A stretch of 29,312 nucleotides of DNA from IMG/VR virus record IMGVR_UViG_2778261593_000009, positions 1-29,312 of that record. One strand, given 5' to 3'. The notes beneath the pieces were generated by a model, which saw nothing but the letters and a program-made list of their open reading frames with translations, did not search any database and was not told the origin of the DNA. This document shows, piece after piece, positions 643-28,130 of the stretch. The position numbers and the translations under genes are program-made. Each line of letters begins with the position of its first letter. Positions within the stretch are counted from its first letter, which is position 1. Source of the stretch: a virus. Its lineage: Duplodnaviria; Heunggongvirae; Uroviricota; Caudoviricetes.

Positions 643-753
643 TCCACCTCCACTATTACCGCCTCCTCCACTGAAAGATGGGCCATCATCAAAAGAGTTG
701 CTAATGCCATCACGAATGGGGGTTACGCCATGCCCGCTTTTAGCACACGCCAC

Positions 754-2122: not shown

Positions 2123-2171
2123 TCGTGAAACCCCAGCGTTACAAGACCACCATGCCCCCAGCGCTCCATGA

Positions 2172-2480
2172 TTAGCCGGGCTGTGTGCCAGTCTTGCGGG
2201 GTTTTTGAGAAGGCGATGTGCTTTTTGGCCCATCAGGGGAGAGAGACGGACTGATCTGCCCAGCAGCCTCATTTGTTTTTCCCGTCATAAGCCAATTCAT
2301 GTACTTAAAAAAGCGAGGGTGATTAACAATCTTGATAAGCACTTCGCCCCCTATGTTTTCAATCCGCCCCGTTTCATAACGACGCAAAGTGCCGATAGGC
2401 ACATCAATCAGGCCGCAAAATTCTTCGCGCGTTAAATCCTCTGATTCACGAATCACTCTAATTTTTTCACCGATAAGCAT
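2172..2480 (-). CDS. C: Immunity repressor, P2 C-like
   Basis: Position immediately upstream of int on the same strand; HTH region and C-terminal FFKYMNWLMTGKTNEAAGQISPSL resembling recalled P2 C; start taken at MLIGEKIRVI (track ORF begins at an upstream alternative start). Confidence 0.7.
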   Translation of the reverse strand: MLIGEKIRVIRESEDLTREEFCGLIDVPIGTLRRYETGRIENIGGEVLIKIVNHPRFFKYMNWLMTGKTNEAAGQISPSLSPDGPKSTSPSQKPRKTGTQPG

Positions 2481-2576
2481 TGACAGTGTTCCTATAAGTA
2501 CACTAAGCTTGCGCACAAGGTGTACTTATAAGTACACCAAGTCACAAACAACCACAGATAGCACAGGTTATCACAC
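2481..2576. promoter_or_regulatory. Divergent promoter/operator switch region between repressor and early operon
   Basis: 18-bp perfect palindrome GTGTACTTATAAGTACAC (about 2521-2538) plus a second copy of the half-site TATAAGTACAC (about 2494-2504) between two divergently transcribed genes. Confidence 0.6.
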
Positions 2577-2855
2577 ATGGCAAAAGTCCTGAACACACAC
2601 GAACAGGCAGACTTTGAGCGTTTAGCAGCGTTCTATCCCTACCGCGATGAGCATGGGTTATCAGTACTTGAAGAAAGCCTGAAAGATTACGCAAAGCGTA
2701 CCAACCAAGCTGTTAACACAGTGAAAAGACAGGCTGACAGAGGTTCAATTCCCATCAACCAGGATGAAAAGAACTCAAGACGCACAGTAAATCTCTTCGC
2801 TCTTTTCCTGAAAACAATCAGGAGCGCAGAAAAATACGTGCAGATGACAAAATAA
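2577..2855 (+). CDS. First early-operon gene; possible Cox/Apl-like small regulator (positional inference only)
   Basis: 92-aa ORF at the position occupied by cox/apl in P2/186; no sequence similarity to P2 Cox that I can recognise. Confidence 0.5.
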   Translation: MAKVLNTHEQADFERLAAFYPYRDEHGLSVLEESLKDYAKRTNQAVNTVKRQADRGSIPINQDEKNSRRTVNLFALFLKTIRSAEKYVQMTK

Positions 2856-2869
2856 CGAGGTGTCATTTT

Positions 2870-3208
2870 ATGCTGAAGCAACGCCGTAATTTTCGTACCG
2901 GAACAGAACGCCACGCTAACCGTTTCACTACCAGTGCATCACGCAGCAACATCCGCTACAGCCTGAGTGATACACACGCAACGCCGGATGGCTACCCAGT
3001 AAAACAAATCGGCGAGCACGCCTGGCTGATTGAGAAAGCTGGAATCGTGATCCACAAATGCCCACGCAATCCGTTTACCGGAAACCGCATTTTTGCATTG
3101 AGCTGCGGCGACAATCACTTCGGGCAGGATTTCACATTATACGAAGCACTACGCACGGTTGATCGTCTGCTTCGCGGGCAAAGTTTTATTAAACAGGCTG
3201 ATTTATAA
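2870..3208 (+). CDS. Hypothetical early protein
   Basis: ATG start with upstream GAGG; tightly packed in the early operon. Confidence 0.55.
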   Translation: MLKQRRNFRTGTERHANRFTTSASRSNIRYSLSDTHATPDGYPVKQIGEHAWLIEKAGIVIHKCPRNPFTGNRIFALSCGDNHFGQDFTLYEALRTVDRLLRGQSFIKQADL

Positions 3209-3218
3209 CAGGTGCTTT

Positions 3219-3497
3219 ATGACCAAAGAGCATGCACAAGGTGTATTTATCCGTTTTATTGATTTTCGCGGTGAACTGTTATTACGCGCATCAGCCATTG
3301 ACGGAGTTGTTCCATCCGAAAAAAACGCAGCTACTTACGTTTATCTGAACGGTACGTGCCTGACTGTGGAGCTTCCGTACCAGACCGTGCGAGAAATCAT
3401 TAGCGAAGCTGAAAAGGCACGTCAGATTAATAGCGATGAACCATACATCGAAATTATCTGCATGGATTCAGAAGCAGAAATCCAGAAGGCAGATTAA
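3219..3497 (+). CDS. Hypothetical early protein
   Basis: Track ORF 3159-3497 begins at TTG; first in-frame ATG (MTKEHAQG...) chosen. Confidence 0.5.
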   Translation: MTKEHAQGVFIRFIDFRGELLLRASAIDGVVPSEKNAATYVYLNGTCLTVELPYQTVREIISEAEKARQINSDEPYIEIICMDSEAEIQKAD

Positions 3498-3508
3498 AGG
3501 GCGTTGCG

Positions 3509-3751
3509 ATGGATAAAGAATATAAAACTCTCGTCAATAAAGCACTTGAGCGCTTTCATTTTCGCTTAAGCGCATCAGGCACTCATGCTGAACGCGCAGC
3601 TCAAGAGTCATTGACCAGGGCCATCAAGAGTATATACGACACGGCTTTTTACATTGACGATCCGGATGCGCTCGACGAGCTTTCCATACTCGTCTGCGCC
3701 GCAGAAAACGGGGACCACATTGAACCGTATAACCTGGGGAATATCGCATGA
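3509..3751 (+). CDS. Hypothetical early protein
   Basis: 80-aa ORF with ATG start. Confidence 0.55.
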   Translation: MDKEYKTLVNKALERFHFRLSASGTHAERAAQESLTRAIKSIYDTAFYIDDPDALDELSILVCAAENGDHIEPYNLGNIA

Positions 3752-3953
3752 GCATATTTATCTCATGGCTTGTTCTGATTATTTCGGTGGCCTGCGCTAT
3801 TGGGATTATGCGAATTATTCATTCAGTGAAAAAGATTGAGCGTTTTTTCTCTGACGAATAACAGCACAAATAAAACACCACATTAAACAAGAAAACGTGA
3901 AAACAATCCGCACTCGCGGAGGTATTCGCACACACAAATAACGAGGATACAAA

Positions 3954-4367
3954 ATGAACGCTAAAGATACAGTCACCATCACCAAACTGAAAAAAATATC
4001 AGAAATGGAAGATGCATTAGCCAGGCAGGCACTGAGAGAAGGGGTTATTCCCTTTTATGTTCGTTCAATGGCTATAGCAGAAGTCACCGCAAGTGCTGCT
4101 GGACTTATTGAAAGCCTGAACAACGAAATCAGCACTCTCAAAGCTCAATTAGCCGGCACCAACACTTCTTCCCCCAGCATTGGGAAACGGGTCTTTATCA
4201 TCAACAACCCACAACAGGAATACATCATCCTGGCAGACCTGCAGGGGAGCTACATGATTGCTGCGGTTCCAGCAAATGAGAGCGAACCGCTGAGTGATGT
4301 ACACATCATCAGACGCGACCGGATTGCGTTCATCGACATAGCAACCTCTTCCCCATTTAACGCATAA
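3954..4367 (+). CDS. Hypothetical early protein
   Basis: 137-aa ORF; ATG preceded by ACGAGGA. Confidence 0.6.
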   Translation: MNAKDTVTITKLKKISEMEDALARQALREGVIPFYVRSMAIAEVTASAAGLIESLNNEISTLKAQLAGTNTSSPSIGKRVFIINNPQQEYIILADLQGSYMIAAVPANESEPLSDVHIIRRDRIAFIDIATSSPFNA

Positions 4368-4395
4368 CCCCATGAAAAACCAAAGGAGCACAGCG

Positions 4396-4596
4396 ATGAT
4401 CAAATCATTCTTAACCGTACATTTCACATCGGGCGGCATTGAATACGACGTGGAATACAGCCTGATCGATCACGACAGAACAGCCCCCTCCCGCAGCGAG
4501 CCCGGTATTCATCACATCTGGCTTAAGAACGGGAAGCATTACGTGGCTACTAACGTGATGTATGTGCAGGTCCTGCGCAAAAAAGCAGGTAACTGA
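4396..4596 (+). CDS. Hypothetical early protein
   Basis: Start moved to MIKSFLTV because of the strong AAGGAG 7 nt upstream. Confidence 0.5.
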   Translation: MIKSFLTVHFTSGGIEYDVEYSLIDHDRTAPSRSEPGIHHIWLKNGKHYVATNVMYVQVLRKKAGN

Positions 4597-4621
4597 TGAC
4601 TCAGGTACAGGAGCCACGCAG

Positions 4622-4867
4622 ATGACCATTCTGGACTATATCGCCGCCAATCCGGGGTGTAGCGGTGGAGGAATCGCCGCAGCACTGAATACCCCAACCA
4701 CAGCCATTAATGCTGAGTTACGCCGACTCTGGCGCAGCGGTTCAGTCATAAGAAAAGAGCGCAAAACAGGCGGTCACTTTTCTTACCAGATAAACCCGAT
4801 GCCGTTCGGGTGTAGCAATCCACTTACCAACATGTTTAACCAGCTACTGAAGGAAGCCAGAGCATGA
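4622..4867 (+). CDS. Hypothetical early protein, possible winged-helix DNA-binding protein
   Basis: Start at MTILDYIAANPG preceded by AGGAG; HTH-like segment GIAAALNTPTTAINAELRRL. Confidence 0.5.
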   Translation: MTILDYIAANPGCSGGGIAAALNTPTTAINAELRRLWRSGSVIRKERKTGGHFSYQINPMPFGCSNPLTNMFNQLLKEARA

Positions 4868-5163
4868 GCGCCATCAACCACCAGGAATTACGCGAACTGG
4901 CGACTGACCTGCAACGAATGGCAACGCCTCAAAAATTACTGGCGTTTCGCGCAATGCTCTCGCCGTCTGCTGTGCTGGCGCTGCTGGATGAGCTGGAGCA
5001 CGCCAGAACCACACCTCTCGCCATTCGCCTGACACTCCGCCATGAAATCGAGGATTTCTGCGCGACGTTGGAGGCGCCAGGCGAACCGGAAACGCCGGAA
5101 GCAATACAGCAAGAGCTGCTGCAACGCATTGACAAGGTTTTTGATTTTTTTCTGAACCAGTAA
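4864..5163 (+). CDS. Hypothetical early protein
   Basis: 99-aa ORF; ATGA overlap with the upstream gene. Confidence 0.55.
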   Translation: MSAINHQELRELATDLQRMATPQKLLAFRAMLSPSAVLALLDELEHARTTPLAIRLTLRHEIEDFCATLEAPGEPETPEAIQQELLQRIDKVFDFFLNQ

Positions 5164-5285
5164 GAAACCAGAACATGCACACACAAAAAAACCGCTTGCC
5201 ATGCCGCAATCAGTCAGGTTACATTTCTGCTGCACCTCACAAAACGGGTGCCGGGTTTCGCAGCCTGCTGACTACACAAGCGCAC

Positions 5286-5307
5286 AACCGCGCCAGCGGT
5301 TTTTTTG
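5286..5307 (+). terminator. Rho-independent terminator after the early operon
   Basis: Hairpin ACCGC-gcca-GCGGT followed by a run of seven T. Confidence 0.5.
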
Positions 5308-5485
5308 TGCGTACTGTATTGCCACGTTTTTTTCGCGTCAGAATTATGGCGGGGCGTACGGGGCCGACTTCGGTCGGGCCGGGTTCTTGTGTAGCCGGTA
5401 CTGCGAACCTCGTACGTCTCGCCACCCACAGTTTCGCAGCTCTGGATGGTGAGTTTTCACAACTTACTACACAAGGGGCCACACC

Positions 5486-5716
5486 ATGGCAAACCGCAAA
5501 CCACACCGCGCTATCGCGGAGCGTCGTCACATCCAGACTGAAATCAACCGCAGACTTTTCCGCGCATCACGCGTCGCGCAAATCATGCACATCAATATGC
5601 TGCATGAGCGCAGCCACGCACTCTCAAACATTTATTCCGCCTCTGTTTTCAGCTATCTGGCGGATGATCTGCGCGAGCTTCAGCAGCTCATCCAGCAGCA
5701 AAACAAACTCCATTAA
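5486..5716 (+). CDS. Hypothetical protein
   Basis: 76-aa ORF; ATG preceded by AAGGGG. Confidence 0.45.
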   Translation: MANRKPHRAIAERRHIQTEINRRLFRASRVAQIMHINMLHERSHALSNIYSASVFSYLADDLRELQQLIQQQNKLH

Positions 5717-5788
5717 TTCCTGTTCCGGGCCTTTCCTGCACCTTGCGGCGGGAGGCCTTCGCACATCTGTAACAAGAGGATTGCCGCA

Positions 5789-6154
5789 ATGATTCTCGCC
5801 AACGACTTTCTTGAATACCTGCTCAACACAGAGCGTGATCTTGCCGTTCGCGTGCGTGAACGTTATGACATGTACCTGAAATCCCTGCCTGTACCGCAGC
5901 TCGCTGACGGAAAGATTATTATTGATGGTCGTTACATGATTGACAGCCACGAGGGAAATTACAGGCTTTACCGTATTGAAGGTGGCACCCCGTCCGTTAT
6001 TGGCATTTACCAGCGCCCATCCTCTGCGATCGTTGATGTGATTGCCGACAGCATCCGCATCACACATCACTATGCCGACACAGAAGACACCGTGCTGGAA
6101 ATTCAGCGGCTGGCTACCGTCTGCCGCGACACCCTGAATGGCATGACGAAGTAA
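5789..6154 (+). CDS. Hypothetical protein immediately upstream of the replication gene
   Basis: 121-aa ORF; ATG preceded by AGAGGA. Confidence 0.55.
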   Translation: MILANDFLEYLLNTERDLAVRVRERYDMYLKSLPVPQLADGKIIIDGRYMIDSHEGNYRLYRIEGGTPSVIGIYQRPSSAIVDVIADSIRITHHYADTEDTVLEIQRLATVCRDTLNGMTK

Positions 6155-6160
6155 ATCACT

Positions 6161-8983
6161 ATGACGGCAGAGCACATCAGGGACTGGCAACAACCGCGCC
6201 ACGCAGTGGGGCGTGAAGGAACGGGGATCCCCGCTCCTGAATCCGCGCTTTCCTCCTGGCTGGATGCCTACCGGGCAGAGAACGAGCGCCGCAAGGAAAT
6301 GGCTGATGCGGCGTTCTCCGCCACGCCGCTGGGCAACCTGATTAATAAAAGCCTGGACGCACAGGAAAAACAGGACAAAACCATCACACTGGCAGGAGAC
6401 GCCAGAAAACAGGCACGCGGCGCAGTGGATGAAGCCATGGCCTCGCTGCGCCTGCTGCCGTCCTATCTGCGCGATCCGCTTATTCGCCACCTCTCCTTCC
6501 TGCGCAAAAAACAGGAAGCCGATCGCCGGAAAGGCAAAAAGAGCTGGCAGGCGGAACGCTATGCACGCGGAACCCTGCGCAAAATATTCGAACGTCTGGA
6601 CCGCACCGATCACCGCTGGCTGACACCGGGTTATCGCTCCCTTGCCGGACGCGAACGCCTGGACGATTTGCTTTACCTGCCGCAGCTCAACAAACACCAG
6701 ATACAGACGCTGGCCACCATGACGGCGGCGATGTTCAGCAGCACCTTCGAAAAACTCTGCGATGGCTTTGGCGCGACCGATGGCGAGCTGACCATGGATG
6801 TAACGCTGAAGGCGTATCAGATGCTGGCCCGCATGGCGTTACACCTGCACGCCATGCCTCCACATTATGACGCACTGACAACAGACAAAGACCGGAGGAA
6901 CGAACCAGACACGGAGCTGCTGCCGGGCGCAATCCTTCGCCTGACCTGTGCGGAATGGTGGAAACGCAAACTGTGGCTGTTACGTTGCGAGTGGCGGGAA
7001 GAACAACTCCGCGCCGCCTGTCTGGTTTCCAGAAAAACATCACCCTATCTGAGCCAGGACGCGTTAAGCGAGTTTCGCGCACAGCGCGAGAAAACACGCG
7101 ATTTCCTGAAAAGTTTCATGCTGGAAAATGAAGACGGGTTCACGATTGATCTCGAGACGGTGTATTACGCGGGAGTAAGTAACCCGGTTCACCGTAAGGC
7201 AGAAATGATGGCCACCATGAAGGGACTGGAACTTCTGGCCGAAGCCCGTGGCGACAGAGCGGTGTTTCTGACTGTCACCTGCCCGTCAAAATACCACGCA
7301 ACAACGGAGAACGGTCATCCGAACCCCAAATGGAACGGGGCCACCATGCGCGACTCCAGCGATTACCTGGTTAACACATTTTTTGCGGCGGTCCGCAAAA
7401 AACTGAACCGCGACGGTCTGCGCTGGTATGGCATCCGCACGGTGGAGCCTCACCATGACGGCACTGTGCACTGGCATATGATGGTCTTTGCACATCCGGA
7501 CGAGATTGAAACCATCGTGTCCCACGTCTGCGATATTGCCATTCAGGAAGACCGCCACGAGCTGGGCGATGACATAACTCCGCGTTTTAAGGCGGAGTAC
7601 GTAGACGGCTCAAAAGGCACACCAACCAGCTACATCGCCACCTACATCGGAAAGAACCTGGACAGCCGCGCCGTGGATGGCATCGACCCGAAAACGGGCA
7701 AGCCACGCGTTGACCACGAAACCGGAAAATCAATGGCCGAGAGCGTGGAACGCGCCATCGGCTGGGCGCGCCTTCACCGGGTCCGCCAGTTCCAGTTCTT
7801 TGGCATTCCCTCCCGTCAGGTGTGGCGTGAACTCCGCCGCCTTGCCAGCCAGATGGCACGCAACCCGGAAGGCCCGCAACGGCTGAAGGATGACGCAATG
7901 GATGCGGTTCTTGCTGCCGCTGATGCCGGGTGTTTTGCCACCTACATTGAAAAACAGGGTGGCGTACTTGTTCCGCGCAAGGACTACCTGATTCGCACAG
8001 CCTACGACCTCGCAGATGAGCTGAACGATTACGGCGAACAGAGTGTACAGATTTACGGGATCTGGTCGCCACTCATCGGGGAATCCTCCCGTGTGTGCAC
8101 GCACCCGGATAACTGGAAGCTGGTAAGACGTAAACCGGAAGCGGAAGACAGCACCCACGAAAATGGTTTTGACCTTCAGGGCGGCCCTGCCGCCCCTTGG
8201 ACTCGTGGCAATAACTGTCCCCGTGTACAGGAAACAGGCAACAGCGGGACAGAACTGTCGGAAGAGCAACCAACACCGTGGCCGCAGATCCCTGACAGCG
8301 TTGATGTGGATGAATGGATGCGCTCACTGAAACGGCACGAACGCCGGGCGCTGATGCGTTCGCTGCGTGACAAACAGGCAAAAAACAGCAGTGATGAAAT
8401 GCAGAGCTGGACACAGAGCCGCAAACAGCCGCGACCTTTGCCTGATAACCACGAGTTACTCGCTAAAGAATGGCGGGAGTCTGCTGAATCTCTCGGCCTG
8501 CATATTGGTGAACAGCAGATGCAGCACCTGTTACGGGGCGGCAGTCTGTACGTTGACGGCAGCATCATTGCACCGCAGGGATTTGAAATTGTACGCAAAC
8601 CGGATACCCGCCCGGACAGCCGAATCACGCAGCTCTGGCAGCGCCTGAGCCGTAATCACGGCGTAAGCAGCACGGAGATCCGCCATAACCCGGTCGCCAG
8701 TTATCTGGAACAGCTAGGGGCATCAGACCCCGAAGCCGCCGCACGCCTGGCATCCACACTTCAGCAAGACCAGAACACCATGAAAACACCCGTTACCGTG
8801 CTTTCTGACATGCTGCGCGCCATCCGTGACGCAGAGCACGCACAGAGAATCAGTGAAACCACTGAACGCGCCCGCCGCAAAGCAAACCTGCTGCGGGGTG
8901 GCCTGACCAGTGGAAACAAAAAACAGACAGAAACGGGATTCACAAATCCCGTAAATGAGCAAAAAACGCGCCGCGATATATGA
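6161..8983 (+). CDS. A: Rolling-circle replication initiation endonuclease, P2 gpA-like
   Basis: HUH-type motif VEPHHDGTVHWHMMVF and paired tyrosines YIATYIGKNLD, matching the conserved motifs of P2 A protein; 940 aa. Confidence 0.85.
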   Translation: MTAEHIRDWQQPRHAVGREGTGIPAPESALSSWLDAYRAENERRKEMADAAFSATPLGNLINKSLDAQEKQDKTITLAGDARKQARGAVDEAMASLRLLPSYLRDPLIRHLSFLRKKQEADRRKGKKSWQAERYARGTLRKIFERLDRTDHRWLTPGYRSLAGRERLDDLLYLPQLNKHQIQTLATMTAAMFSSTFEKLCDGFGATDGELTMDVTLKAYQMLARMALHLHAMPPHYDALTTDKDRRNEPDTELLPGAILRLTCAEWWKRKLWLLRCEWREEQLRAACLVSRKTSPYLSQDALSEFRAQREKTRDFLKSFMLENEDGFTIDLETVYYAGVSNPVHRKAEMMATMKGLELLAEARGDRAVFLTVTCPSKYHATTENGHPNPKWNGATMRDSSDYLVNTFFAAVRKKLNRDGLRWYGIRTVEPHHDGTVHWHMMVFAHPDEIETIVSHVCDIAIQEDRHELGDDITPRFKAEYVDGSKGTPTSYIATYIGKNLDSRAVDGIDPKTGKPRVDHETGKSMAESVERAIGWARLHRVRQFQFFGIPSRQVWRELRRLASQMARNPEGPQRLKDDAMDAVLAAADAGCFATYIEKQGGVLVPRKDYLIRTAYDLADELNDYGEQSVQIYGIWSPLIGESSRVCTHPDNWKLVRRKPEAEDSTHENGFDLQGGPAAPWTRGNNCPRVQETGNSGTELSEEQPTPWPQIPDSVDVDEWMRSLKRHERRALMRSLRDKQAKNSSDEMQSWTQSRKQPRPLPDNHELLAKEWRESAESLGLHIGEQQMQHLLRGGSLYVDGSIIAPQGFEIVRKPDTRPDSRITQLWQRLSRNHGVSSTEIRHNPVASYLEQLGASDPEAAARLASTLQQDQNTMKTPVTVLSDMLRAIRDAEHAQRISETTERARRKANLLRGGLTSGNKKQTETGFTNPVNEQKTRRDI

Positions 8984-9023
8984 AGCGCGCACAAAACAGG
9001 CGAAAGCGGGAGTTCAGAATCCC
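8935..9023. promoter_or_regulatory. Two copies of an imperfect palindrome flanking the parM promoter region; candidate ParR-binding centromere/operator (parC-like)
   Basis: GGGATTcacaAATCCC (about 8935-8950) and GGGAGTTCAGAATCCC (about 9008-9023), both followed by GTAA. Confidence 0.35.
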
Positions 9024-9058
9024 GTAACCGATTAATTAATCAACATAAGGAAATCGAC

Positions 9059-10018
9059 ATGAAAATTTGTATCGACGACGGCTCCACCAACATCAAGCTG
9101 GCATGGACTGAGAACGGCGAACGCCGCAACGCCATCAGCCCGAACAGCTTCAAGTCGGAATGGTCAGCGCCGTTCGGTGGCACGCAGCCCGCGAACTACA
9201 TGCTTGATGGCGTGCGCTATGGTTTTGATCCGGTCAGCGATCGCTTTGTCCAGACGACCGACACGCAATACCAGTACAGCGATGTGAATGTTATTGCCAT
9301 TCATCATGCGCTGGTCAAATCAGGCATCACACCACAGGAGGTGGATGTGGTTGTCACCCTGCCACTGAGCGAGTATTTCGATACAAACGCACAGCCGGAC
9401 ATGGCCAACATCAGCCGCAAAAAAGCGAACGTTATGCGCCCGGTGGAGTACCAGAACGGCGAAGCATTCACTATCCGTAACGTGCGGGTTATGCCTGAAT
9501 CCATTCCGGCAGGCTTTAAAGCACTGGCTGACATGAGTCCGTTTGAATCCCTGCTGATTGTGGATTTGGGCGGAACCACGCTGGATGTGGCAAAGGTTCA
9601 GGGGCAACTGGCAGGTATCAGCCAGGTGTTTTGCGATCCACACGTAGGCGTTTCTCTGATGGCCGATGCCGTGCTGTCGGTGATGGCCACCAACGGTATG
9701 CGTACCAGTCACCACATCGCTAATACCATTATCGAACATCGCCACGATGAAGCCTGGCTGCGCCAGCACATCCACAATGACGCGCATTACGCCAGCCTGA
9801 TGGCAGTTATTCGTGAAAAGGAGGAAACACTGAAACAACGCGTGATCCGCGCGCTGGCGGGTTTTTCGGGTTACGGGCGGGTGATGGTTGTCGGTGGAGG
9901 GGCGGAGATTGTGGCACCCGCCATCCGCGAAGCCTGCGGAGTTAATGCGACTTTCATCGCGGACGGGGTGCCACAGTTTGCTCTGGTTAATGGGCTGTAC
10001 GCAATGGACAAGGAGTAA
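9059..10018 (+). CDS. parM: Actin-like segregation ATPase ParM (StbA)
   Basis: N-terminus MKICIDDGSTNIKLAW and motifs DVNVIAIHHAL, VMPESIPAG, LIVDLGGTTLD, FSGYGRVMVVGGGAE, LVNGLY closely parallel plasmid R1 ParM as I recall it. Confidence 0.85.
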   Translation: MKICIDDGSTNIKLAWTENGERRNAISPNSFKSEWSAPFGGTQPANYMLDGVRYGFDPVSDRFVQTTDTQYQYSDVNVIAIHHALVKSGITPQEVDVVVTLPLSEYFDTNAQPDMANISRKKANVMRPVEYQNGEAFTIRNVRVMPESIPAGFKALADMSPFESLLIVDLGGTTLDVAKVQGQLAGISQVFCDPHVGVSLMADAVLSVMATNGMRTSHHIANTIIEHRHDEAWLRQHIHNDAHYASLMAVIREKEETLKQRVIRALAGFSGYGRVMVVGGGAEIVAPAIREACGVNATFIADGVPQFALVNGLYAMDKE

Positions 10019-10022
10019 ACCA

Positions 10023-10334
10023 ATGACGACACCAACCAGACGGATAAGTTTCTATCTGAAGCCCGCCGCCGTCAAGAACGAAGGCGAAGCATGCGCCTGG
10101 CTGGACAGCCTTACACCAGAAGCCCGCAAAAGCGGCCAACGCGTGGCTTTTCTGGCCGGGCTGGCACTTCTGAAAATGAATCCGGCAGAGGCTTACCGAC
10201 TGGCTGCATGGGCTGATGATGAAGCGTTATCAGTGACACAGACCAGGACAGAACGCCCCGCATCACAGCCAGTATCAACCGCACAGATAACCAGCCAGAT
10301 GGCCGGGAATATCCAGGCGTTATTTCCTGAATAA
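10023..10334 (+). CDS. parR: ParR-like centromere-binding adaptor
   Basis: Small gene immediately downstream of parM with AGGAG SD; ISFYLKP...AFLAGLALL resembles the R1 ParR N-terminal pattern. Confidence 0.6.
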   Translation: MTTPTRRISFYLKPAAVKNEGEACAWLDSLTPEARKSGQRVAFLAGLALLKMNPAEAYRLAAWADDEALSVTQTRTERPASQPVSTAQITSQMAGNIQALFPE

Positions 10335-10460
10335 CACAACATCAGGGCATATTTGCCCTGATATCCCCTCTCAAACAAGGCAGCAACAAACTGCCCGTTG
10401 AATAACACAAATTACATGTTATGATTAACTCATAAGTAACCCCCGTTTGTGTCTTACGTT

Positions 10461-10835
10461 ATGAATGATCAAGATTATGGGCTTGATACCCTATTGGATA
10501 TGCACGGCTACCAGCACCACATGGATAATGGCTACTGGTGGAAGATTGAAGCCTACCGGGTCAGCCCAAGCCCATTCAGACCCCACGGGATACGTTACAA
10601 TCTGACATTACATGACCAGTACAATTCCCGCATATTTGGGATGGATAATGCTCATGGAATAAAACCACCGAAGAAGGGCCGTTTCACAGGGAAATTAACT
10701 GTTTACGACCATGTGCACCGCACAACATTTGACAAAGGCTATCCCTATGAATTCATTTCTGCGGAACAGCTTTTATCTGACTTCTTCGATAACGTAGATC
10801 GCATCATTGACGAAATCACAAGGGGGAATCAATGA
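10461..10835 (+). CDS. Hypothetical protein, first gene of a coupled two-gene module
   Basis: Track ORF starts at GTG 10449; first ATG at 10461 (MNDQDYGLD...); His/Tyr/Trp-rich; I recognise no family. Confidence 0.55.
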   Translation: MNDQDYGLDTLLDMHGYQHHMDNGYWWKIEAYRVSPSPFRPHGIRYNLTLHDQYNSRIFGMDNAHGIKPPKKGRFTGKLTVYDHVHRTTFDKGYPYEFISAEQLLSDFFDNVDRIIDEITRGNQ

Positions 10836-11209
10836 AAGCCCGTATCGGGATTATCCCTGAAAATATCCTCCGCCAGCGGCTACTGGATGTCGCCAGAGGA
10901 AAACGTAAACCACTGCCAGATGAACCAAAAGTATGGTTTTCTTCACTGCACGCTGTAGGGCAAGCTCTGAGTAACGAAAACATTGCTCTGTTACGTCTGA
11001 TGGATGAAGAAAAACCTCAAACAATGACAGAGTTGGCAGAAATGTCAGGCAGGAAACTGAGCAATCTTTCAGTAACCTTAAAAATGCTGAGCGGCTACGG
11101 TTTTGTCAGCCTGGAAAAGAAAGGCAATACCATTCTCCCGAAAGCATTATTCACCGATTTTGAAATCATCATTGATCCATCTGTCGGAACCACTCATCGG
11201 GCCGCCTGA
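10832..11209 (+). CDS. Putative winged-helix DNA-binding protein, second gene of the module
   Basis: ATGA overlap with the upstream gene; HTH-like segment MTELAEMSGRKLSNLSVTLKMLSGYGFVSLEK. Confidence 0.55.
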   Translation: MKARIGIIPENILRQRLLDVARGKRKPLPDEPKVWFSSLHAVGQALSNENIALLRLMDEEKPQTMTELAEMSGRKLSNLSVTLKMLSGYGFVSLEKKGNTILPKALFTDFEIIIDPSVGTTHRAA

Positions 11210-11384
11210 TCCCCACCAAACCAGGGCGATAATCACGCATCGCCCTGCTGCACAATAGTGCACAAAAAACGCGCTTTTTCTGCGCGCAGGTGACGGGGGA
11301 ACAGTCCGCGCTTCAGGGGTAAATGGCACCTCCTGAAAGATGCCACAGCATCATAATAGAATGAGCGCGTTGTTCACGACACAC

Positions 11385-11442
11385 GCAAAAACAAGAAAAC
11401 CCGGAACGGGTGCGCAAATTCTTTGTGCGCCCGTTCTGGGTT
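11385..11442 (-). terminator. Rho-independent terminator downstream of ogr
   Basis: Long inverted repeat CCGGAACGGGTGCGCA ... TGCGCCCGTTCTGGG preceded on the + strand by an A-rich run (U-run on the - strand). Confidence 0.55.
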
Positions 11443-11462
11443 GGACAAGCGAAGCGCGTCAG

Positions 11463-11720
11463 CTATCCAGCCTGCAACAGCTCCAGCGCCATCTGTTTTT
11501 CTTCCGGGCGCATCCGTTCAATCAACAGCTTTAACACACCGTTATCCAGCCCGCTGGGCACCAGTGTGTGCGAGTAGGTCAGATTCATCACCCAGGTATG
11601 TCCGCACTCGAGACGGGTGCAACGGTAATACACATCAGCAAACTGATCGGTTTTCCAGGCTGTTTTCTCAATCACTGCACGAGCACCACAGCAATGACAC
11701 CGCGCTTTCTGTCTGCGCAT
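11463..11720 (-). CDS. ogr: Ogr/Delta-family zinc-finger late transcription activator
   Basis: CxC(C) ... C-x4-C spacing (RCHCCGARA ... YYRCTRLECGHTW) like P2 Ogr; start at MRRQKA preceded by GGAGGTGG. Confidence 0.75.
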   Translation of the reverse strand: MRRQKARCHCCGARAVIEKTAWKTDQFADVYYRCTRLECGHTWVMNLTYSHTLVPSGLDNGVLKLLIERMRPEEKQMALELLQAG

Positions 11721-11785
11721 TTTCCACCTCCCGGAACAACGTTTTACTGCTGCTGATTTTACCCGCTCCTTCTCCATGTCGCACA

Positions 11786-12820
11786 TCACTCCGTGGCTTC
11801 ATTAAATTCAAGAATAAATTCCACCTGCCCCAGTCGCCTGATATCAGGGTCACTATTGATTCCCTCCATAATCAGGCGGCGCATCGGAATAACCTCATCT
11901 CTGTAATATGCCTCGCGGGATTTCAGCGGATCACCAAGCCCGGCCGTATTTGCGGGAATGATGCCGGCAAGTCCGGGTGGAAAACGGTGCGCAACGAGCT
12001 GATCCTGGGCACTGATGGTTTTTATATTCAGGAACTCATCTTTTGTACCTGAATCCCCGATAGGGATCACCTTAACGCCTTCTTTGTCTCCGCCAGGTAT
12101 ATTGATAAACATGGATTTAAAATTGCCCGCCCCTTTTGACGCCTCTATCTTTTTACGGAATTCCGCCTCGAGCTCGGGATCCATGTCCGGGTCAGTGGAA
12201 TACAGGATATAACCAAGATGTGCGCCGTTCTTGTAATACTTGCGGCGAAAGCGGGTGGCATCCACATTCAGCATGGCAGATTCCATCCCGTGAATATAAT
12301 CCGGGACACCGTAAACCTGCTGTTGTGGGTCATAAATTGCCACGAACACCACTTCGCCTGGCGGGTAAACGAGATCTTCCAGTGCCGCCTGCACAATCAC
12401 CGTGCCACCTTCGTTGTTGCGTCGCAGGTACAGAGAAGGCAACGTATGCAGGCGCACCACCCGCCCGAAGCCATTGCGCACTTTAAGCAGCCCCATATCC
12501 CCGAATATCAGCAGATTGGTCACTGCTGCCGCCATGGCGGCGTGTGTCATACCACCACCACCCCGAAAACCCTGCATGATCATATTCACGCGCGCACGCA
12601 ATACCGCGCCGTGATACGGTGCGATATTGGACAACATGGCGAGATCCATGCGCTCAATGGGCGGCGTGTACCAGCCGTTATAGCCATCCCAGAGCGAGCC
12701 GTAATAACAGCCCCATGCAGCGACCGGTTCCGGGTCACCAAATTCAATAAACGTCATTTTGCTGGCTGTTTTTTTTGCCACGCCATCGTGTAACACGGGG
12801 TATTTTTTCTTTTTACTCAT
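11786..12820 (-). CDS. Q: Portal protein, P2 gpQ-like
   Basis: 344 aa, the size of P2 Q; position upstream-adjacent to terminase on the strand opposite the head genes. Confidence 0.8.
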   Translation of the reverse strand: MSKKKKYPVLHDGVAKKTASKMTFIEFGDPEPVAAWGCYYGSLWDGYNGWYTPPIERMDLAMLSNIAPYHGAVLRARVNMIMQGFRGGGGMTHAAMAAAVTNLLIFGDMGLLKVRNGFGRVVRLHTLPSLYLRRNNEGGTVIVQAALEDLVYPPGEVVFVAIYDPQQQVYGVPDYIHGMESAMLNVDATRFRRKYYKNGAHLGYILYSTDPDMDPELEAEFRKKIEASKGAGNFKSMFINIPGGDKEGVKVIPIGDSGTKDEFLNIKTISAQDQLVAHRFPPGLAGIIPANTAGLGDPLKSREAYYRDEVIPMRRLIMEGINSDPDIRRLGQVEFILEFNEATE

Positions 12821-14600
12821 CTGACAGGATCCATGTTGATTTGCGCTTGTGCTTATAGTTCAGGGGTTCATTACTTGCGGCATGAGCTATGGCAAAGAAG
12901 ATGTCAGCGTGCCCGGTTTCTTCGCTACGTTCGGCGGTGAAAGTGACTTTATTGCCGCTGTTGGTGGATTCCTGACGAATGGCCAGGAATGATGCCGGAA
13001 TATCCGTGGCTTCCTCATCCCACTCAATACGGTTGGCGTAAACCAGATCCAGCATCTTCATCACCAGGCGGTTTTTGGATTCCACGCTGTAATGAATGGC
13101 CACTGTTTCACGGCGGGCAAATCCCTGAACCAGCTCAAAGACACCGTAGCCAAGACCGGTGACGTCGATGCCGATAAACGTCATGTTATAGCGCGCCTTA
13201 ATGCCGCGGATACGCTCTGCCATAAACTGGAATGACATGCTGCGCCAGTGGTGTTTTTCCAGCACGCGGAATCGTTCTGCCGCAACCAGCGGCGGTGCCA
13301 GCACAACAAATGTGGCGTTATCGCCGGAGCGCGCAGGATCAAAGCCGCCCCACACCTCACGGTTACCAAATGGCATGGGCTCTTCCGGGTGAAAATCCTC
13401 CCACGTACTGACATCAACACCACAACGCACAAGATCATCGAATTTAAAGACGCTCTCTTTGTCATCCACAAACACACACATAAACAGCATATTGAACGCT
13501 GTTTCGTTGTATCTCTCGCGCAGCTCGTTGATATCAGCAAGGTTAAAGCCGCCGGCAATGGCATCTTCCAGCGTAACCACATAGCGCCACTGACCATCCG
13601 GACATTCACGCCCACCATCGCGCAGCTCATCAAAGGATGGAAACTCAACCCCTTTTCGTTTCGGATCGCCTTTGCGCCATTCATCGCCAGACCAGAACGG
13701 GTAGCCCTGGTGTGTTTTGGATGACGGCGTGGAGAAATAGGTAATACGCCAGTGTTTATGGGTGGCCATCCCTGATGCCACTTCATTGAGACGGCGAAAA
13801 CCGGGGATCCACAGGTATTCATCAATATACAGGTGGCCGCTGTTTGACTGCGCTGTGTTACTGTTGGTCGCCAGAAAATACAGTTCAGCCAGATTACTTA
13901 ACTTAACCGGATTGCCTTTAATGGGAATGCCAAACTCTGTTTGTGCAATTTTTACAATATAAGTACGGAACACTTCGGCCTGACGTTTTGATGCCGATAA
14001 AAATATCTGTGTGTCGCCGGTTAATACTGCATCTTCAAATGCCTCAAACGCGAAGTAATACGTCGCCCCAATCTGGCGGGATTTAAGCAGGTTGCGTACA
14101 CGGCGGAATTTGTTTTCACGCAGATGCAACTGATAAGCAAACAACTTTTTCGTAAACGGCTCAAAACTTTCAGCAGTCAGTCCGGAAACGTCATTAGTTT
14201 TGCGGGGACGCTCTTTCTTACCTGCACCTTTTTCTCCGCGTTCTTCTTTTCCATAACGGCCAGGCTGGGGAATGTCCACTCCCATTCGCGCAATCTCAGC
14301 CATTCGTTCCGTGTGCTTGTTTCTGACCGACATCAGTTTGACGTGATGACCAATCAGGCGATCAAGCTCATCGTGTTCTTCCTGGGTCTTATGGTCACGT
14401 TCCGCCAGTACAGCGAGACGCCGGGCGATAACATCTTCCACGCCTTCCGTATTGAGCTGCGTGTACCACTCAAACTTTGTCGCCCAGTAATAAACAATTC
14501 GCGGGCTGTTCAGTCCGAGTTTCTTTTGTATTTCTTTTGGTGTGTGCCTTTTCAGATAGAGTGATTTTGCTGCGGCAATAACTTCTTCAGAATAAGCCAT
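12813..14600 (-). CDS. P: Terminase large (ATPase) subunit, P2 gpP-like
   Basis: 595 aa; divergent from the scaffold/capsid operon as in P2; 8-nt overlap with Q. Confidence 0.8.
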   Translation of the reverse strand: MAYSEEVIAAAKSLYLKRHTPKEIQKKLGLNSPRIVYYWATKFEWYTQLNTEGVEDVIARRLAVLAERDHKTQEEHDELDRLIGHHVKLMSVRNKHTERMAEIARMGVDIPQPGRYGKEERGEKGAGKKERPRKTNDVSGLTAESFEPFTKKLFAYQLHLRENKFRRVRNLLKSRQIGATYYFAFEAFEDAVLTGDTQIFLSASKRQAEVFRTYIVKIAQTEFGIPIKGNPVKLSNLAELYFLATNSNTAQSNSGHLYIDEYLWIPGFRRLNEVASGMATHKHWRITYFSTPSSKTHQGYPFWSGDEWRKGDPKRKGVEFPSFDELRDGGRECPDGQWRYVVTLEDAIAGGFNLADINELRERYNETAFNMLFMCVFVDDKESVFKFDDLVRCGVDVSTWEDFHPEEPMPFGNREVWGGFDPARSGDNATFVVLAPPLVAAERFRVLEKHHWRSMSFQFMAERIRGIKARYNMTFIGIDVTGLGYGVFELVQGFARRETVAIHYSVESKNRLVMKMLDLVYANRIEWDEEATDIPASFLAIRQESTNSGNKVTFTAERSEETGHADIFFAIAHAASNEPLNYKHKRKSTWILSDE

Positions 14601-14830
14601 AAACTACCTGTGGAATTTATTTTAATGGGTTTTCATCTTTTTCCGGTTCGTTCCGTAGCGTTCCGTAATATCCCATTATTTGCCGCAGGCATTTTTTTAA
14701 CGATTATCTGTTTTCGGTATTTTTCGGATATATGCGCATATCCGAAAGTACCGGAAATTAATCAGATGACGACGTTTTCATTTCTCCGTTAAATAACGCC
14801 AGTTTAATTTTTATCAGCGGATTAATTCAG
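14601..14830. promoter_or_regulatory. Divergent late promoter region between P and O
   Basis: AT-rich 230-bp intergenic region; inverted repeat TTCGGAT-n10-ATCCGAA (about 14723-14746) containing palindrome ATGCGCAT; direct repeats CGTTCCGTA. Confidence 0.5.
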
Positions 14831-15727
14831 ATGACGAAGCAGAAAACAGACTGGGTTGTGGTTGCCACATCAGGCCCCACCATCGACGGTCGGGAAATTG
14901 ATCCGAAGTGGCTGACGGATGCCGCCGAGGTTTACAACCCGGACGAGCGAGCCGCCATGCTCTGGCCATATCACGCCGATTCCGGATGGCGTGCCTTCAC
15001 CAATAACTACGGCATTGTTGATGCCCTGAAAGTCGAAAAATTTGGTGAAAAGGTGCAGCTTAAAGCACGCCTGATCCCAAATCGCTTCCTGATTGAAGCC
15101 AATAAGGCCGGGCAGAAACTTTTTACCTCCATTGAAGTGCGGGAAAACTATCTGGGCACGGGCAAATTCTTTGTGTCCGGTATCGCCGTGACGGATACCC
15201 CAGCCAGCATTAACACTACACGCCTGCAGTTTTCCATGGGGGAAGCCATCCATATGGGCAACGCAGAGGCGCTGAATTTTACGCTGCAGCCTGATGATGA
15301 GCAGGCCAAGCGCAACTTCTTCTCCCGCTTCTTCTCATCTGACAATCACCAACAGGGAATTTACCAAGCCATGAACGAAGAACAGTTCAGCCAGTTAATG
15401 GGTGCCATTAATAAAACCAGTGAACGCCTGGACGAGCTGGAAAAAAACGTCGCGCAGTTCAGCGCGAAGGATGCCCCGAAAGATACCGGTGATAACAAGC
15501 CGGAAGGCAGCACCGGCGATCAGGGGCAGGACAACGCAGAACAGAACAACAAGGACGACAAAACCTTCACGCTGACCACCGAGCAGGGCGAAAAGCTGTT
15601 CTCCACAGTGAACGCCATCGCGGAGAAGGTTACCAGTATGGAAACCGCATTTGCTGAACTCAGCAAGGACGCCACGAAGCTGCCGGGCAACAATCCGGCC
15701 GGTGGCGAAACTTTTAACCTGGTGTAA
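14831..15727 (+). CDS. O: Capsid scaffolding protein, P2 gpO-like
   Basis: 298 aa with acidic, low-complexity C-terminal half; first gene of the rightward head operon. Confidence 0.75.
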   Translation: MTKQKTDWVVVATSGPTIDGREIDPKWLTDAAEVYNPDERAAMLWPYHADSGWRAFTNNYGIVDALKVEKFGEKVQLKARLIPNRFLIEANKAGQKLFTSIEVRENYLGTGKFFVSGIAVTDTPASINTTRLQFSMGEAIHMGNAEALNFTLQPDDEQAKRNFFSRFFSSDNHQQGIYQAMNEEQFSQLMGAINKTSERLDELEKNVAQFSAKDAPKDTGDNKPEGSTGDQGQDNAEQNNKDDKTFTLTTEQGEKLFSTVNAIAEKVTSMETAFAELSKDATKLPGNNPAGGETFNLV

Positions 15728-15741
15728 CCGGAGAGAGCGCA

Positions 15742-16755
15742 ATGAATTTCACACCAGAAGCACAAAAGCTGGTTAATCGCTATATCAGCGAACTGCAAAA
15801 AACATTCAGTGACTGCGAACGCTCGAGCGATCGTTACTTTTCACTGACCGAACCGCGCAGCATTGCCCTGCGTAAAGCCCTGCTGGAAAGCACGGAGTTT
15901 CTGAGTTTCATCACCTGCATGGACGTTCCGCACCCGCAGGGGCAGGTCGTCACCGTGGGCGAATCCACACTGCGCACCGGTCGCGTGAAAAGCGGTCGTT
16001 TCGCTAAAGGTTCGGGCATCAAAGGCAACGAATTTAAACTCGTTGAAACTGATTCCTGCTGCGTGATCACCTGGGAACAACTCGCCATCTGGGCGAATGC
16101 CGGCAGCCCGCAGGAATTTTTCAACCTGATGAACTCCGCCGCCGTCACCAACTTTGCGCTGGATATGCTGCGCATTGGCTTTAACGGTAAAACAGCAGCG
16201 GAAAACTCTGACCCGGAAAGTCATCCGAACGGCGAAGACGTCAACATCGGCTGGCATGAAATCGCCAAAAAGTGGGGAGAACAGCCCGGCAATACCTCCC
16301 GTATTCTGACAGACGCCGTTACCCTGGGCGAAGGCGGCGATTATGTCGGTCTTGATGCCATGGCCTCAGACCTGATCCGCACTTACATCCCGGCACAGTA
16401 TCACAACGACCCACGACTTACCGTACTGGTCGGCGCAGACCTTGTGGCTGCTGAAGAACTACGCCTCTACAACAAAGAGGATAAGCCTACCGAAAAAGTG
16501 GCCGCACAGTTGCTGACAAAGAACATTGCAGGCCGCAAGGCTATCATTCCGCCGTTTATGCCGGGCAAACGTATGGTGGTGACCATGCTGCCAAACCTGC
16601 AGATCCTGACGCTGAAAGGCTCCCGCCGCCGCAAGGCAGAAGATGTGGGCGATCGCAAACAGTTCGAAAACTCATACTGGCGTTATGAGGGGTACGCCCT
16701 GGGCGATCCGGATTTATATGCTGCCGTGGATGAGTCTGCGGTCACCATCTCCTGA
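15742..16755 (+). CDS. N: Major capsid protein, P2 gpN-like
   Basis: Segments FNGKTAAENSD and GEGGDYVGLDA parallel recalled P2 N; synteny. Confidence 0.8.
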   Translation: MNFTPEAQKLVNRYISELQKTFSDCERSSDRYFSLTEPRSIALRKALLESTEFLSFITCMDVPHPQGQVVTVGESTLRTGRVKSGRFAKGSGIKGNEFKLVETDSCCVITWEQLAIWANAGSPQEFFNLMNSAAVTNFALDMLRIGFNGKTAAENSDPESHPNGEDVNIGWHEIAKKWGEQPGNTSRILTDAVTLGEGGDYVGLDAMASDLIRTYIPAQYHNDPRLTVLVGADLVAAEELRLYNKEDKPTEKVAAQLLTKNIAGRKAIIPPFMPGKRMVVTMLPNLQILTLKGSRRRKAEDVGDRKQFENSYWRYEGYALGDPDLYAAVDESAVTIS

Positions 16756-16772
16756 TAAACGGAGCGCACGGT

Positions 16773-17483
16773 ATGCCAACGCCAATGCAGCGACAACGTG
16801 CCCGACAGATGGATGAGCGCCGTGCGGCGCTCATGACCAGAACAGACGGGCGCGCCGTCAGCACAGAGAGTCAGCACATTAAGCTGCTGGCACTGGATAA
16901 CGATGTCAGACAACTGCACAACATGGAGCTGCTGTCTGACAAGCTGGAATTCAAGCGGAACACGCTGCTGCCCCGCTGGCTGCCACACGCACAGGCTTAT
17001 CTGGAGGGGGAACGCGTCTATCAGAATCCCATTCTGGTGTACTGCATCATCTGGCTGTTCGATACCGGGCAGTTTGAGATGGCGCTGCGGTGGGCTGACA
17101 TTGCCATTGAGCAGGGGCAAAAGACGCCGGAGAACTTCAAAAGCGAGCTGCCAACGTTTGTGGCCCATTTCATTCTTGAATGGGCAGAAGCCGAAGCTGA
17201 ACGCGGGAACAGTATCGCGCCATATTTTCAGCAGGTGTTTGAAAAAATCCGCGACAAATGGCGCGTGAATGAACGCCTTGCTGCCCGCTACTGGCGCTTT
17301 GCAGGCATCCTGCTGCTGCGCGGCGATGACGGCAAGCCACAGGCCAGCGCAATTAACGATCCGGAGAGACTGCAACAGGCCGACCAGTGCCTGGAACGGG
17401 CTGCCTGGCTGCATCCCAAAATTCAGGTGAAAACCCTGCGCCAGCGCATTGCCGCAAGACTGCGCGCGTTGCAGGGCACGTAA
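16773..17483 (+). CDS. M: Terminase small/endonuclease subunit, P2 gpM-like
   Basis: 236 aa; synteny after N; GGAG SD. Confidence 0.7.
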   Translation: MPTPMQRQRARQMDERRAALMTRTDGRAVSTESQHIKLLALDNDVRQLHNMELLSDKLEFKRNTLLPRWLPHAQAYLEGERVYQNPILVYCIIWLFDTGQFEMALRWADIAIEQGQKTPENFKSELPTFVAHFILEWAEAEAERGNSIAPYFQQVFEKIRDKWRVNERLAARYWRFAGILLLRGDDGKPQASAINDPERLQQADQCLERAAWLHPKIQVKTLRQRIAARLRALQGT

Positions 17484-17581
17484 ACGACTCCCAACAACCG
17501 GGCGGGCGCGGTGGAGGTGTGCCGGTAAAAGCCATCAGCACACTGCGGAAACCGGTCAGCCCGCCTTTCCCCGGAGTGAGC

Positions 17582-18076
17582 ATGTTTGACGGGAAAAGCA
17601 TTCACTATCAGCAGGCCATTATTCAGAACGATGGATTCTGGCCGGATATTGATGCCGGCGATTTTGAAAAGAGCCGCAGCATCCCCGCCGTCACGTCACA
17701 CGAAACGGTGCTGACGGCGCTGCTTTGCGCGGTAACAGAAATTAACACTGAACTGGCTGCACGCCGTGAATACTGGCAGGAACAGGGCCACACCCGGGCC
17801 GCCGATATTCCGGGTTACACCGTGTTGCAACCAGAACCGCGCAATACGGATGCACAACCTGAACGGATGCAGAACCACATTACAGCACTGTACACCAAGG
17901 CTGTGTATGCCCGCGCAAAGGCCGATCTTTTGCCGGAATCTGCCAGCGTGGGGCGACGCGAGGCGCAGCCCTCATCAGAAGCCAGCGAGAGCCGCCGGAC
18001 GTTGCTGGCTGAAGCGGCAATGGCGGTGCGAGCGCTGCTGGGCCGACCGCGTGCATCCATCGCGCTGATTGATTAA
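17582..18076 (+). CDS. L: Head completion protein, P2 gpL-like
   Basis: Start at MFDGKSIHYQ preceded by GGAG; 164 aa; synteny. Confidence 0.6.
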   Translation: MFDGKSIHYQQAIIQNDGFWPDIDAGDFEKSRSIPAVTSHETVLTALLCAVTEINTELAARREYWQEQGHTRAADIPGYTVLQPEPRNTDAQPERMQNHITALYTKAVYARAKADLLPESASVGRREAQPSSEASESRRTLLAEAAMAVRALLGRPRASIALID

Positions 18077-18085
18077 GGAAATGGT

Positions 18086-19269: not shown

Positions 19270-19288
19270 CAAAATCAGGAGACAAATT

Positions 19289-28128: not shown

Positions 28129-28130
28129 CA

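Follow-up and report, generated by a model that had tools for sequence, protein, structure and literature searches.

ParMRC is the textbook actin-like machine of plasmid segregation, and its presence in integrating phages poses the question of why an integrating virus needs a segregation motor. This question is raised here by a phage sequence of 29,312 nucleotides (IMG/VR record IMGVR_UViG_2778261593_000009, positions 1 to 29,312; Caudoviricetes), the whole of which is called the window below and in which the genes parM and parR are located at 9059–10334. In the original prediction, made from the sequence alone, the locus was described as a plasmid-type ParMR partition pair placed between a rolling-circle Rep and the packaging genes of a P2-like prophage with an integrase. 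This description was borne out: matches to Pfam families and to R1 structures confirmed the pair with exactly these coordinates, gpA was found upstream, portal and terminase genes were found downstream and an integrase gene was located at 1130–2272. We assume, with a probability of about 0.5, that the pair belongs to a functional type II (ParM/ParR/centromere) cassette that is located at the end of the early replication operon and serves the free circular phage genome, not the integrated prophage. The observations behind this assumption are intact proteins with conserved motifs, purifying selection, an invariant linkage to gpA across a deep clade, a pair of palindromes unique to the gpA/parM junction and the integrated state of the element.

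Properties of the ParM and ParR proteins

The ParM protein was found to match the structure of R1 ParM from one end to the other (1mwk; residues 2–316, E = 9.3e-93), and 147 of 317 positions counted on this alignment were identical (46%). Both ParM Pfam domains, namely StbA_N and the C-terminal domain, were covered over their full length. The original prediction presupposed an ATPase, and on alignment all the ATPase motifs were found to be retained and identical to those of R1: the phosphate-1 motif DDGSTN (residues 6–11), the catalytic glutamate region PESIPAG (146–152), the phosphate-2 motif DLGGTT (169–174) and the adenosine motif GGGAE (279–283). The nucleotide-binding motifs were also invariant in an alignment of four sequences, taken from the window, an IncI plasmid, an IncF plasmid and the phage D6. 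ParM was assigned to the PHROGs family phrog_691 ('partition protein'). In the search against NCBIfam, the matches of ParM stayed below the threshold, and ParR and gpA had none.

The parR gene starts with an ATG at 10023, 4 nt past the parM stop codon. When ParR alone was used as a query against the PDB sequences, no match was found; a profile of five ParR proteins, headed by that of the window, reached the ParR of pB171 (2JD3, residues 1–85, E = 4.8e-12). The N-terminus is predicted to be of the ribbon-helix-helix-type DNA-binding family. ParR and the candidate centromere (parC) were compared with IncI and IncFIA/FIC-type records, a set to which R1's own ParR and parC did not belong, and ParR of the window was 17–30% identical to the aligned plasmid and phage-plasmid ParR/StbB proteins. 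Thus, the claim that the pair is close in sequence to that of R1 holds at the family level and is otherwise overstated, given these identities of both ParM and ParR. The N-terminal strand TRRISFYLKP was common to the aligned plasmid and prophage homologues. At the extreme C-terminus, which is the place where R1 ParR touches ParM in the ParM–ParR peptide structure, the motif N-[AI]-x-x-L-F-P was found in most of the eight homologues aligned, with the proteins of the IncI plasmid pCMY-136 and of D6 deviating from it.

With its 103 aa, ParR is shorter than its plasmid counterparts (112–140 aa). In the E. coli lineage the middle segment RLPxLLAELL...ISSVLP is missing or replaced, and this segment was found in all other aligned prophage and plasmid ParR proteins (116–140 aa), including those of the loci L011, L012, L014 and L015. 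The profile of the PHROGs family phrog_2515 has exactly 103 positions. In addition, a second parR allele was found in the lineage of the phage P88 (Xuanwuvirus, Peduoviridae), namely in the phage vB_EcoM-569R5 (L007), where it occupies positions 2625–2939 and corresponds to 10077–10334 of the window. DNA identity to this allele stops at 10077 and the protein differs beyond residue 18, with the N-terminal strand MTTPTRRISFYLKP and the C-terminal NIQTLFPE being kept. About 44% of the cassette-bearing E. coli genomes match only as far as approximately 10077 (742 of 1305 records cover at least 80% of the query).

The pairwise dN/dS values of parM against six relatives were 0–0.08, and 21 synonymous changes were counted between the window and P88 along with a single non-synonymous one; parM is under strong purifying selection. 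Judging by the intact motifs and these dN/dS values, the ParM/ParR pair is almost certainly functional. For parR, dN/dS against relatives was 0.09–0.45, and the changes were gathered in the linker. The reading frames were intact in seven of the eight sequences compared. In the phage 503458 (L008), parM is frameshifted and its first frame is 136 aa long; small indels are present elsewhere in this record, so either a pseudogene or sequencing errors may be involved.

Linkage to gpA, candidate centromere and expression signals

A segment of 1.55 kb (8900–10450) was 94–97% identical to 14 phage records, all of the P88 type (Xuanwuvirus or close to it), including P88, P884B11, 520873, 503458 and the Citrobacter phage phiSM. 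ParM of the window had 99.7% amino acid identity to P88 ParM. The same genes were present in every P88/Xuanwuvirus record found, one of which is the frameshifted one. In P88 itself (NC_026014, SF19_gp17 and gp18) both the gpA-parM-parR order and the two palindromes described below are the same; the DNA of 8900–10362 is 96.7% identical and the early region 2900–11350 about 95% identical.

Among 5426 complete E. coli genomes, 1304 (24%) were found to contain the cassette, at 1450 chromosomal and 2 plasmid places. The gpA gene of this type (DNA matched over at least 80% of its length) was found in 1321 genomes, so parMR goes with almost every copy of it. The RefSeq labels are 'plasmid segregation protein ParM' and 'plasmid partitioning/stability family protein' throughout, beside 'replication endonuclease'. 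Homologues of gpA were revealed in 382 phage records, belonging to Peduovirus, Fels-2/SopEPhi-like, Klebsiella, Yersinia, Vibrio and Burkholderia phages, and this type of ParM was found in 16 phage records: 14 of the P88 type (about 11 distinct phages, owing to GenBank/RefSeq duplicates) and two D6 entries (47.8% identity). The cassette is therefore rare among gpA-replicon phages (14 of 382 records), and P2, 186 and HP1-type phages are without it. The original prediction considered parMR unusual for the P2 family; this is correct with respect to rarity, but the cassette is routine in the P88 lineage and in a deep enterobacterial clade. Routine occurrence in the lineage, which that prediction had counted against itself, was observed in all P88/Xuanwuvirus records found, in 24% of the complete E. 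coli genomes and in other Enterobacterales.

ParM relatives were also found downstream of gpA in P2-like prophages of Plesiomonas shigelloides (63% identity), Hafnia (62%), Serratia (58%) and Enterobacter ludwigii (54%), with ParR following ParM and the portal and terminase genes located beyond. The gpA-parM-parR order is direct in the E. coli, Citrobacter, Salmonella and Plesiomonas elements, and in those of Hafnia, Serratia and Enterobacter one or two small ORFs or a longer spacer separate gpA from parM. Across five genera, and with ParM identity falling to 54%, the position of the cassette is thus unchanged. In a neighbour-joining tree of 109 ParM proteins, which was built without bootstrap and is indicative only, the prophage-borne proteins, including that of the window, formed one clade apart from the IncF, IncI and D6 proteins. 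The plasmid ParM proteins from PLSDB were all less than 60% identical, except for six records that hold P88-type DNA. The simplest reading of these data would be an old acquisition of parMR by one P2-like branch and a long joint descent with gpA afterwards. Outside phages, ParMR pairs with about 49–50% identity were observed on chromosomes: in Dickeya (L016) the pair is part of an integrative conjugative element (TraG, TraU, integrase), and in Mangrovibacter (L017) it belongs to an integrated plasmid (Rep3, ParAB, umuDC).

Two direct repeats of 38 nt, which are 74% identical and whose starts are 73 bp apart, were found around the gpA/parM junction, each with a palindrome (Table 1). The second copy is held by the 75-bp spacer between gpA and parM. 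The pattern CGGGA-N8-TCCCG occurs twice in the 29.3-kb window, both times at this junction, with 0.01 occurrences expected; CGGGA-N9-TCCCG has no occurrence in the window, N8 being the correct spacing. Both palindrome cores are conserved in seven relatives, and in most P88-type relatives the second copy is a perfect palindrome, ACGGGATT-TCAG-AATCCCGT. In the Plesiomonas prophage (L011), two 26-nt repeats (GCGGGACAAC...CCCG) are located 72 bp apart at the same position, and the N-terminal strand of its ParR, TRRISFYLNP, was called the same as that of the window. In the Serratia and Enterobacter prophages the strand reads NRKISFYLKP and the inverted repeats upstream of parM differ. All this allows us to consider the two palindromes as probable ParR sites. 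The result is an atypical candidate centromere that consists of two palindromes and overlaps the end of gpA; together with the tie of parMR to gpA across a deep clade and the strong selection on parM, it is what the present analysis adds to the known annotation.

All genes in the interval 2577–10334 are located on the plus strand with short gaps between them, and a strict consensus scan of the stretch from gpA to parM revealed neither a promoter of the sigma-70 type nor a terminator on the plus strand, which is consistent with a single early operon. In P2, the early operon is silenced by the immunity repressor in the lysogen. By analogy, the early transcript probably ends with parMR, which would be expressed along with gpA once the phage has infected a cell or been induced and would be kept silent in the lysogen. 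A hairpin directly after parR probably marks the operon end; DNA identity to most P88-type phage records stops near it, between approximately 10330 and 10377, and comparable hairpins follow parR in the prophage relatives L014 and L015.

The carrier element and its state in the cell

The element is a member of the P2/HP1 group, since it contains gpA, a divergent head gene cluster, a contractile tail and a tyrosine integrase (Table 1). The small plus-strand early genes upstream of gpA encode DUF4761, DUF4754, MarR-like winged-helix (wHTH), Ead/Ea22 and Ash proteins or proteins with no match. The divergent helix-turn-helix repressor gene is located on the minus strand along with the integrase gene. 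The portal and terminase genes face those of the GPO scaffold, the P2-family capsid and the gpM small terminase on the plus strand, and the HP1-type tail genes (DUF2586, HP1 Orf24) are followed by tape measure, Baseplate_J and tail-fibre genes.

Table 1. Genes and sequence elements of the window discussed in the text.
Feature	Position	Strand	Basis or remark
Tyrosine integrase/recombinase	1130–2272 (longest ORF)	-	NCBIfam Xer/integrase matches; STEC388 homologue annotated at 330 aa
gpA, P2-type rolling-circle replication endonuclease, HUH, 940 aa	6161–8983	+	PF05840, 1.8e-129
Candidate parC site 1, 38-nt repeat	8917–8954	+	palindrome ACGGGATT-CACA-AATCCCGT at 8933–8952; inside the last codons of gpA
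Candidate parC site 2, 38-nt repeat copy	8990–9027	+	palindrome GCGGGAGT-TCAG-AATCCCGT; just upstream of the parM ribosome-binding site
parM, actin-like segregation ATPase, 319 aa	9059–10018	+	StbA_N, 4.4e-82; ParM C-terminal domain, 1.3e-68
parR, candidate centromere-binding adaptor, 103 aa	10023–10334	+	PF10784 Plasmid_stab_B, 1.6e-24; phrog_2515
Hairpin, perfect 9-bp stem	10341–10362	+	ATCAGGGCA-tatt-TGCCCTGAT; directly after parR
Portal	11786–12820	-	Pfam Phage_portal
Large terminase	12813–14600	-	Terminase_6N/6C and gpP-like Terminase_5

The similarity to P88-type phages was limited to 2904–11363 (91–96% DNA identity, about 27% of a 25-kb query). A search of 50,697 phage records gave no near match for the integrase/immunity end (1–2900) or for the whole late region (11400–29312), and only 41 of the 5426 E. 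coli genomes matched at least 80% of the late region. The tail is HP1-like, unlike that of P88. Hence, genome-wide nucleotide similarity to P88, as in members of Xuanwuvirus, was not found: the module is shared and not the whole genome. The element is a mosaic that combines the replication/partition module of P88 with P2-type heads and an HP1-type tail. The occurrence of the P88-like module beside unmatched late genes indicates that replication and partition genes move as a unit between different virion modules.

In gpA, the Pfam GPA domain spans only residues 179–503 of 940, and the tblastn matches to other P2-like phages stop at approximately residues 700–800. This makes the C-terminal 150–240 residues or so lineage-specific, and the last codons of this part hold the first candidate parC palindrome. 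The promoter-like site with an extended -10 element at 10398–10425 is located ahead of a two-gene cassette (10449–11209) that follows parR and encodes a 128-aa protein without a family match and, in an overlapping frame, a 125-aa winged-helix protein (HVO_A0114/MarR-like, phrog_11214). The interval between parR and the portal gene is a variable cargo spot, which we take to correspond to the tin/old region of P2; in relatives it holds ClpX zinc-finger-like genes, HicAB, a KAP NTPase or a membrane protein. Analysis using PADLOC revealed no match to defence models for ParM, ParR and the 128-aa neighbour, and the 125-aa neighbour gave only weak wHTH-type matches. Two cargo genes were also found on the minus strand between the btuC-side junction and the integrase gene (193–1158), encoding a coiled-coil DUF1640/CCDC90-like protein (186-aa ORF) and a 134-aa phrog_4293 protein. 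The P2 ori nick sequence, searched with a query that may be wrong, was not found in the window, a result that is uninformative on the origin.

Position 1 of the window directly adjoins the chromosomal gene btuC, as was seen in the strain STEC388, and part of 1–3000 was matched in all 5426 complete E. coli genomes. Consequently, this copy is a prophage integrated in an Escherichia-type chromosome. Seven 'plasmid' matches were found in PLSDB, three of which (228–542 kb) were not opened; among the seven, pZ1323PEC0009-2 (L003, NZ_CP148288.1) was the only one identified as a phage-sized circle. This record from a cat E. coli isolate presents a full P88-type genome with the integrase gene as a circular, non-mobilisable 'plasmid' of 34,461 bp. 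Its first base is 18 bp away from the att crossover, which is what an assembler would produce by closing an excised prophage, and its attP junction is split, i.e., integrated, in 442 of 442 matching genomes. Three further matches were rejected as episomes: a 1.4-Mb record on its size alone, a linear 26.8-kb fragment ridden with IS1 and an IncHI2 record in which chromosomal housekeeping genes adjoin the prophage. In this last record, Salmonella pS2122_1 (L019, NZ_CP110658.1, 272 kb; 1–41437), the prophage is of the P88 type, carries sopE in addition to parMR, is bounded by IS26 and is located near ffh, rpsP, rimM, trmD, rplS, aroF, tyrA and pheA, and the record may be either a plasmid–chromosome cointegrate or a misassembly. 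A plasmid-type replication initiator was found neither among the early ORFs scanned nor in the annotation of P88 and its relatives, and gpA is the sole replication gene found.

Possible role of the cassette in the phage cycle

To explain a segregation motor in an integrating phage, a mechanism can be proposed in which we infer the binding of ParR to the palindromes, the co-transcription with gpA, the timing of action and the benefit. P2 gpA is a cis-acting nickase, and its replication gives monomeric circles, which are the packaging substrate. After infection or induction, the early promoter would drive the genes from cox to gpA-parM-parR, and rolling-circle replication by gpA would yield monomeric circular copies. 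On each circle, both CGGGA-N8-TCCCG palindromes around the gpA/parM junction would be occupied by ParR dimers, whose conserved C-terminal tail would catch ParM-ATP filaments as they elongate. A filament that elongates with a ParR-bound circle at either end could then push the copies apart, so that phage genomes spread through the cell and into both daughters. As a benefit, the phage may replicate and be packaged more efficiently, and/or phage-free segregants may arise less often, either ahead of integration or once the prophage has been excised. The original prediction had offered the positioning of phage DNA by an actin-like filament as one of two options, and this option is plausible.

By analogy, the closest functional precedent is the integrated prophage CGP3 of Corynebacterium glutamicum. 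It encodes the actin-like AlpC and the co-transcribed adaptor AlpA, with binding sites (alpS) upstream of the operon; the system is induced early, and the excised circle does not replicate efficiently without it (Donovan et al. 2015, PMC4446434). CGP3 differs in host phylum and phage type, and the proteins of the window are, by sequence, clear ParM/ParR members of the R1 family. With the ParMRC systems of R1/R100 and pB171 (parA/stb), the cassette shares homologous ParM and ParR proteins, the parM-then-parR order and candidate sites upstream of parM. However, the plasmids that carry ParMRC are theta-replicating, whereas the carrier here is an integrating rolling-circle phage. The spacer ahead of parM measures 75 bp here and 270–500 bp in the plasmids examined, and in place of an array of repeats there are two palindromes with a spacing of 73 bp, one of which is part of gpA; the parC of R1 consists of ten 11-bp iterons. 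In type II ParMRC, parC overlaps the parM promoter, whereas no promoter of its own was detected for the present cassette in the consensus scan. The shorter ParR and the separate clade of the prophage ParM proteins are further differences from the plasmid systems.

Several points weigh against a cassette that acts on the free phage genome. The candidate centromere has two sites only, in contrast to the AT-rich repeat arrays in 270–500 bp of non-coding DNA in the plasmid relatives examined, and upstream of the Hafnia parM no comparable repeat was seen. The E. coli palindromes may not be ParR sites, since they also fit a terminator pattern on the minus strand, namely a hairpin with a T-run. A weak promoter missed by the strict scan could permit parMR expression in lysogens. 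With a short lytic cycle, the gain from pushing genomes apart is not obvious, and no functional test of this cassette in any phage was found in the literature.

The other option of the original prediction, an extrachromosomal phage-plasmid, would mean that P88-type phages persist for many generations either integrated or as a low-copy circle, with parMR as a stability function. A partition system, which is typical of phage-plasmids, is indeed present, and P88 was classed with phage-plasmids for its partition and replication genes in the survey by Pfeifer et al. (2020), where both episomal and integrative states were suggested. The P1-like phage-plasmid D6, which is maintained as a plasmid, carries a ParM of the same family along with StbB (StbA/StbB), and its GenBank record notes similarity to 'phage P88 StbA'. 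The only Plesiomonas contig with a ParM relative is phage-sized (32,167 bp) and has an integrase gene at its end, and pZ1323PEC0009-2 was deposited as a circle with its integrase included. Moreover, the Burkholderia phage KS14 is a proven plasmid prophage, so a P2-like virion module can be paired with plasmid lysogeny; but KS14 relies on a RepB-type initiator and ParA and has neither gpA nor a tyrosine integrase (PMC3091744), whereas the element studied here has both of the latter, is integrated and depends on gpA for all that was found of its replication. The copy in the window is located beside btuC, the cassette occupies 1450 chromosomal places against two on plasmids, the attP junction and the start of the pZ1323PEC0009-2 record fit an excised prophage, and three other PLSDB matches were judged not to be episomes (a chimera, the linear fragment and the 1.4-Mb record). 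In addition, if gpA is in a repressor-silenced operon, by analogy with P2, stable plasmid replication in the repressed state is hard to reconcile with it. Most of the evidence argues against a regular plasmid state, and we consider this option weak and unlikely to be right.

A function in the lysogen seems still less probable, whether ParMR of the prophage hinders incoming plasmids or phages with a related centromere or acts as a 'fitness factor' of the host. The cassette borders the variable cargo hotspot before the portal gene, the lineage is very common in E. coli, and in the paper on C. rodentium prophages the partition protein of phiSM is listed as a 'fitness' gene, from annotation only. 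However, parMR belongs to the conserved backbone tied to gpA and not to the variable cargo, no independent promoter was detected and neither protein has a PADLOC match. Cross-reaction with plasmids is unlikely as well, since the plasmid ParM proteins found are less than 60% identical and the plasmid centromeres examined look unrelated. That the cassette is an inert passenger left to decay after recombination with a plasmid long ago has almost no chance of being true: the frameshift in the phage 503458 and the partial loss of the ParR middle region in the E. coli lineage would fit decay, but parM has accumulated nearly only synonymous changes, with low dN/dS in all pairs, seven of eight frames are intact and the position is kept across five genera. 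The selection and synteny data have effectively refuted this reading already. Service to the free circular genome by a cassette expressed with gpA is thus the reading that we retain at the probability given above.

GenBank, RefSeq and PHROGs already list these genes, and the episomal hypothesis has appeared in print; the P88 paper leaves the partition genes unmentioned. The window contributes a mosaic example and comparative detail, not a discovery. As a tentative generalization, a clade of P2-like phages of Enterobacterales may have hard-wired a ParMR motor to gpA, with a two-palindrome centromere located partly in gpA, and the motor may position or segregate replicating circles or give the phage a transient plasmid phase. 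The phages P88 and phiSM are inducible and culturable and the lineage is present in about 24% of the complete E. coli genomes, so the question is directly testable. The weight of the finding would grow if P2-type replication were shown to involve an actin-driven step or if a dual lifestyle proved to be real. If the proposed role is true, the cassette would be a Gram-negative, R1-family counterpart of the AlpAC system of CGP3, carried by roughly one in four E. coli genomes.

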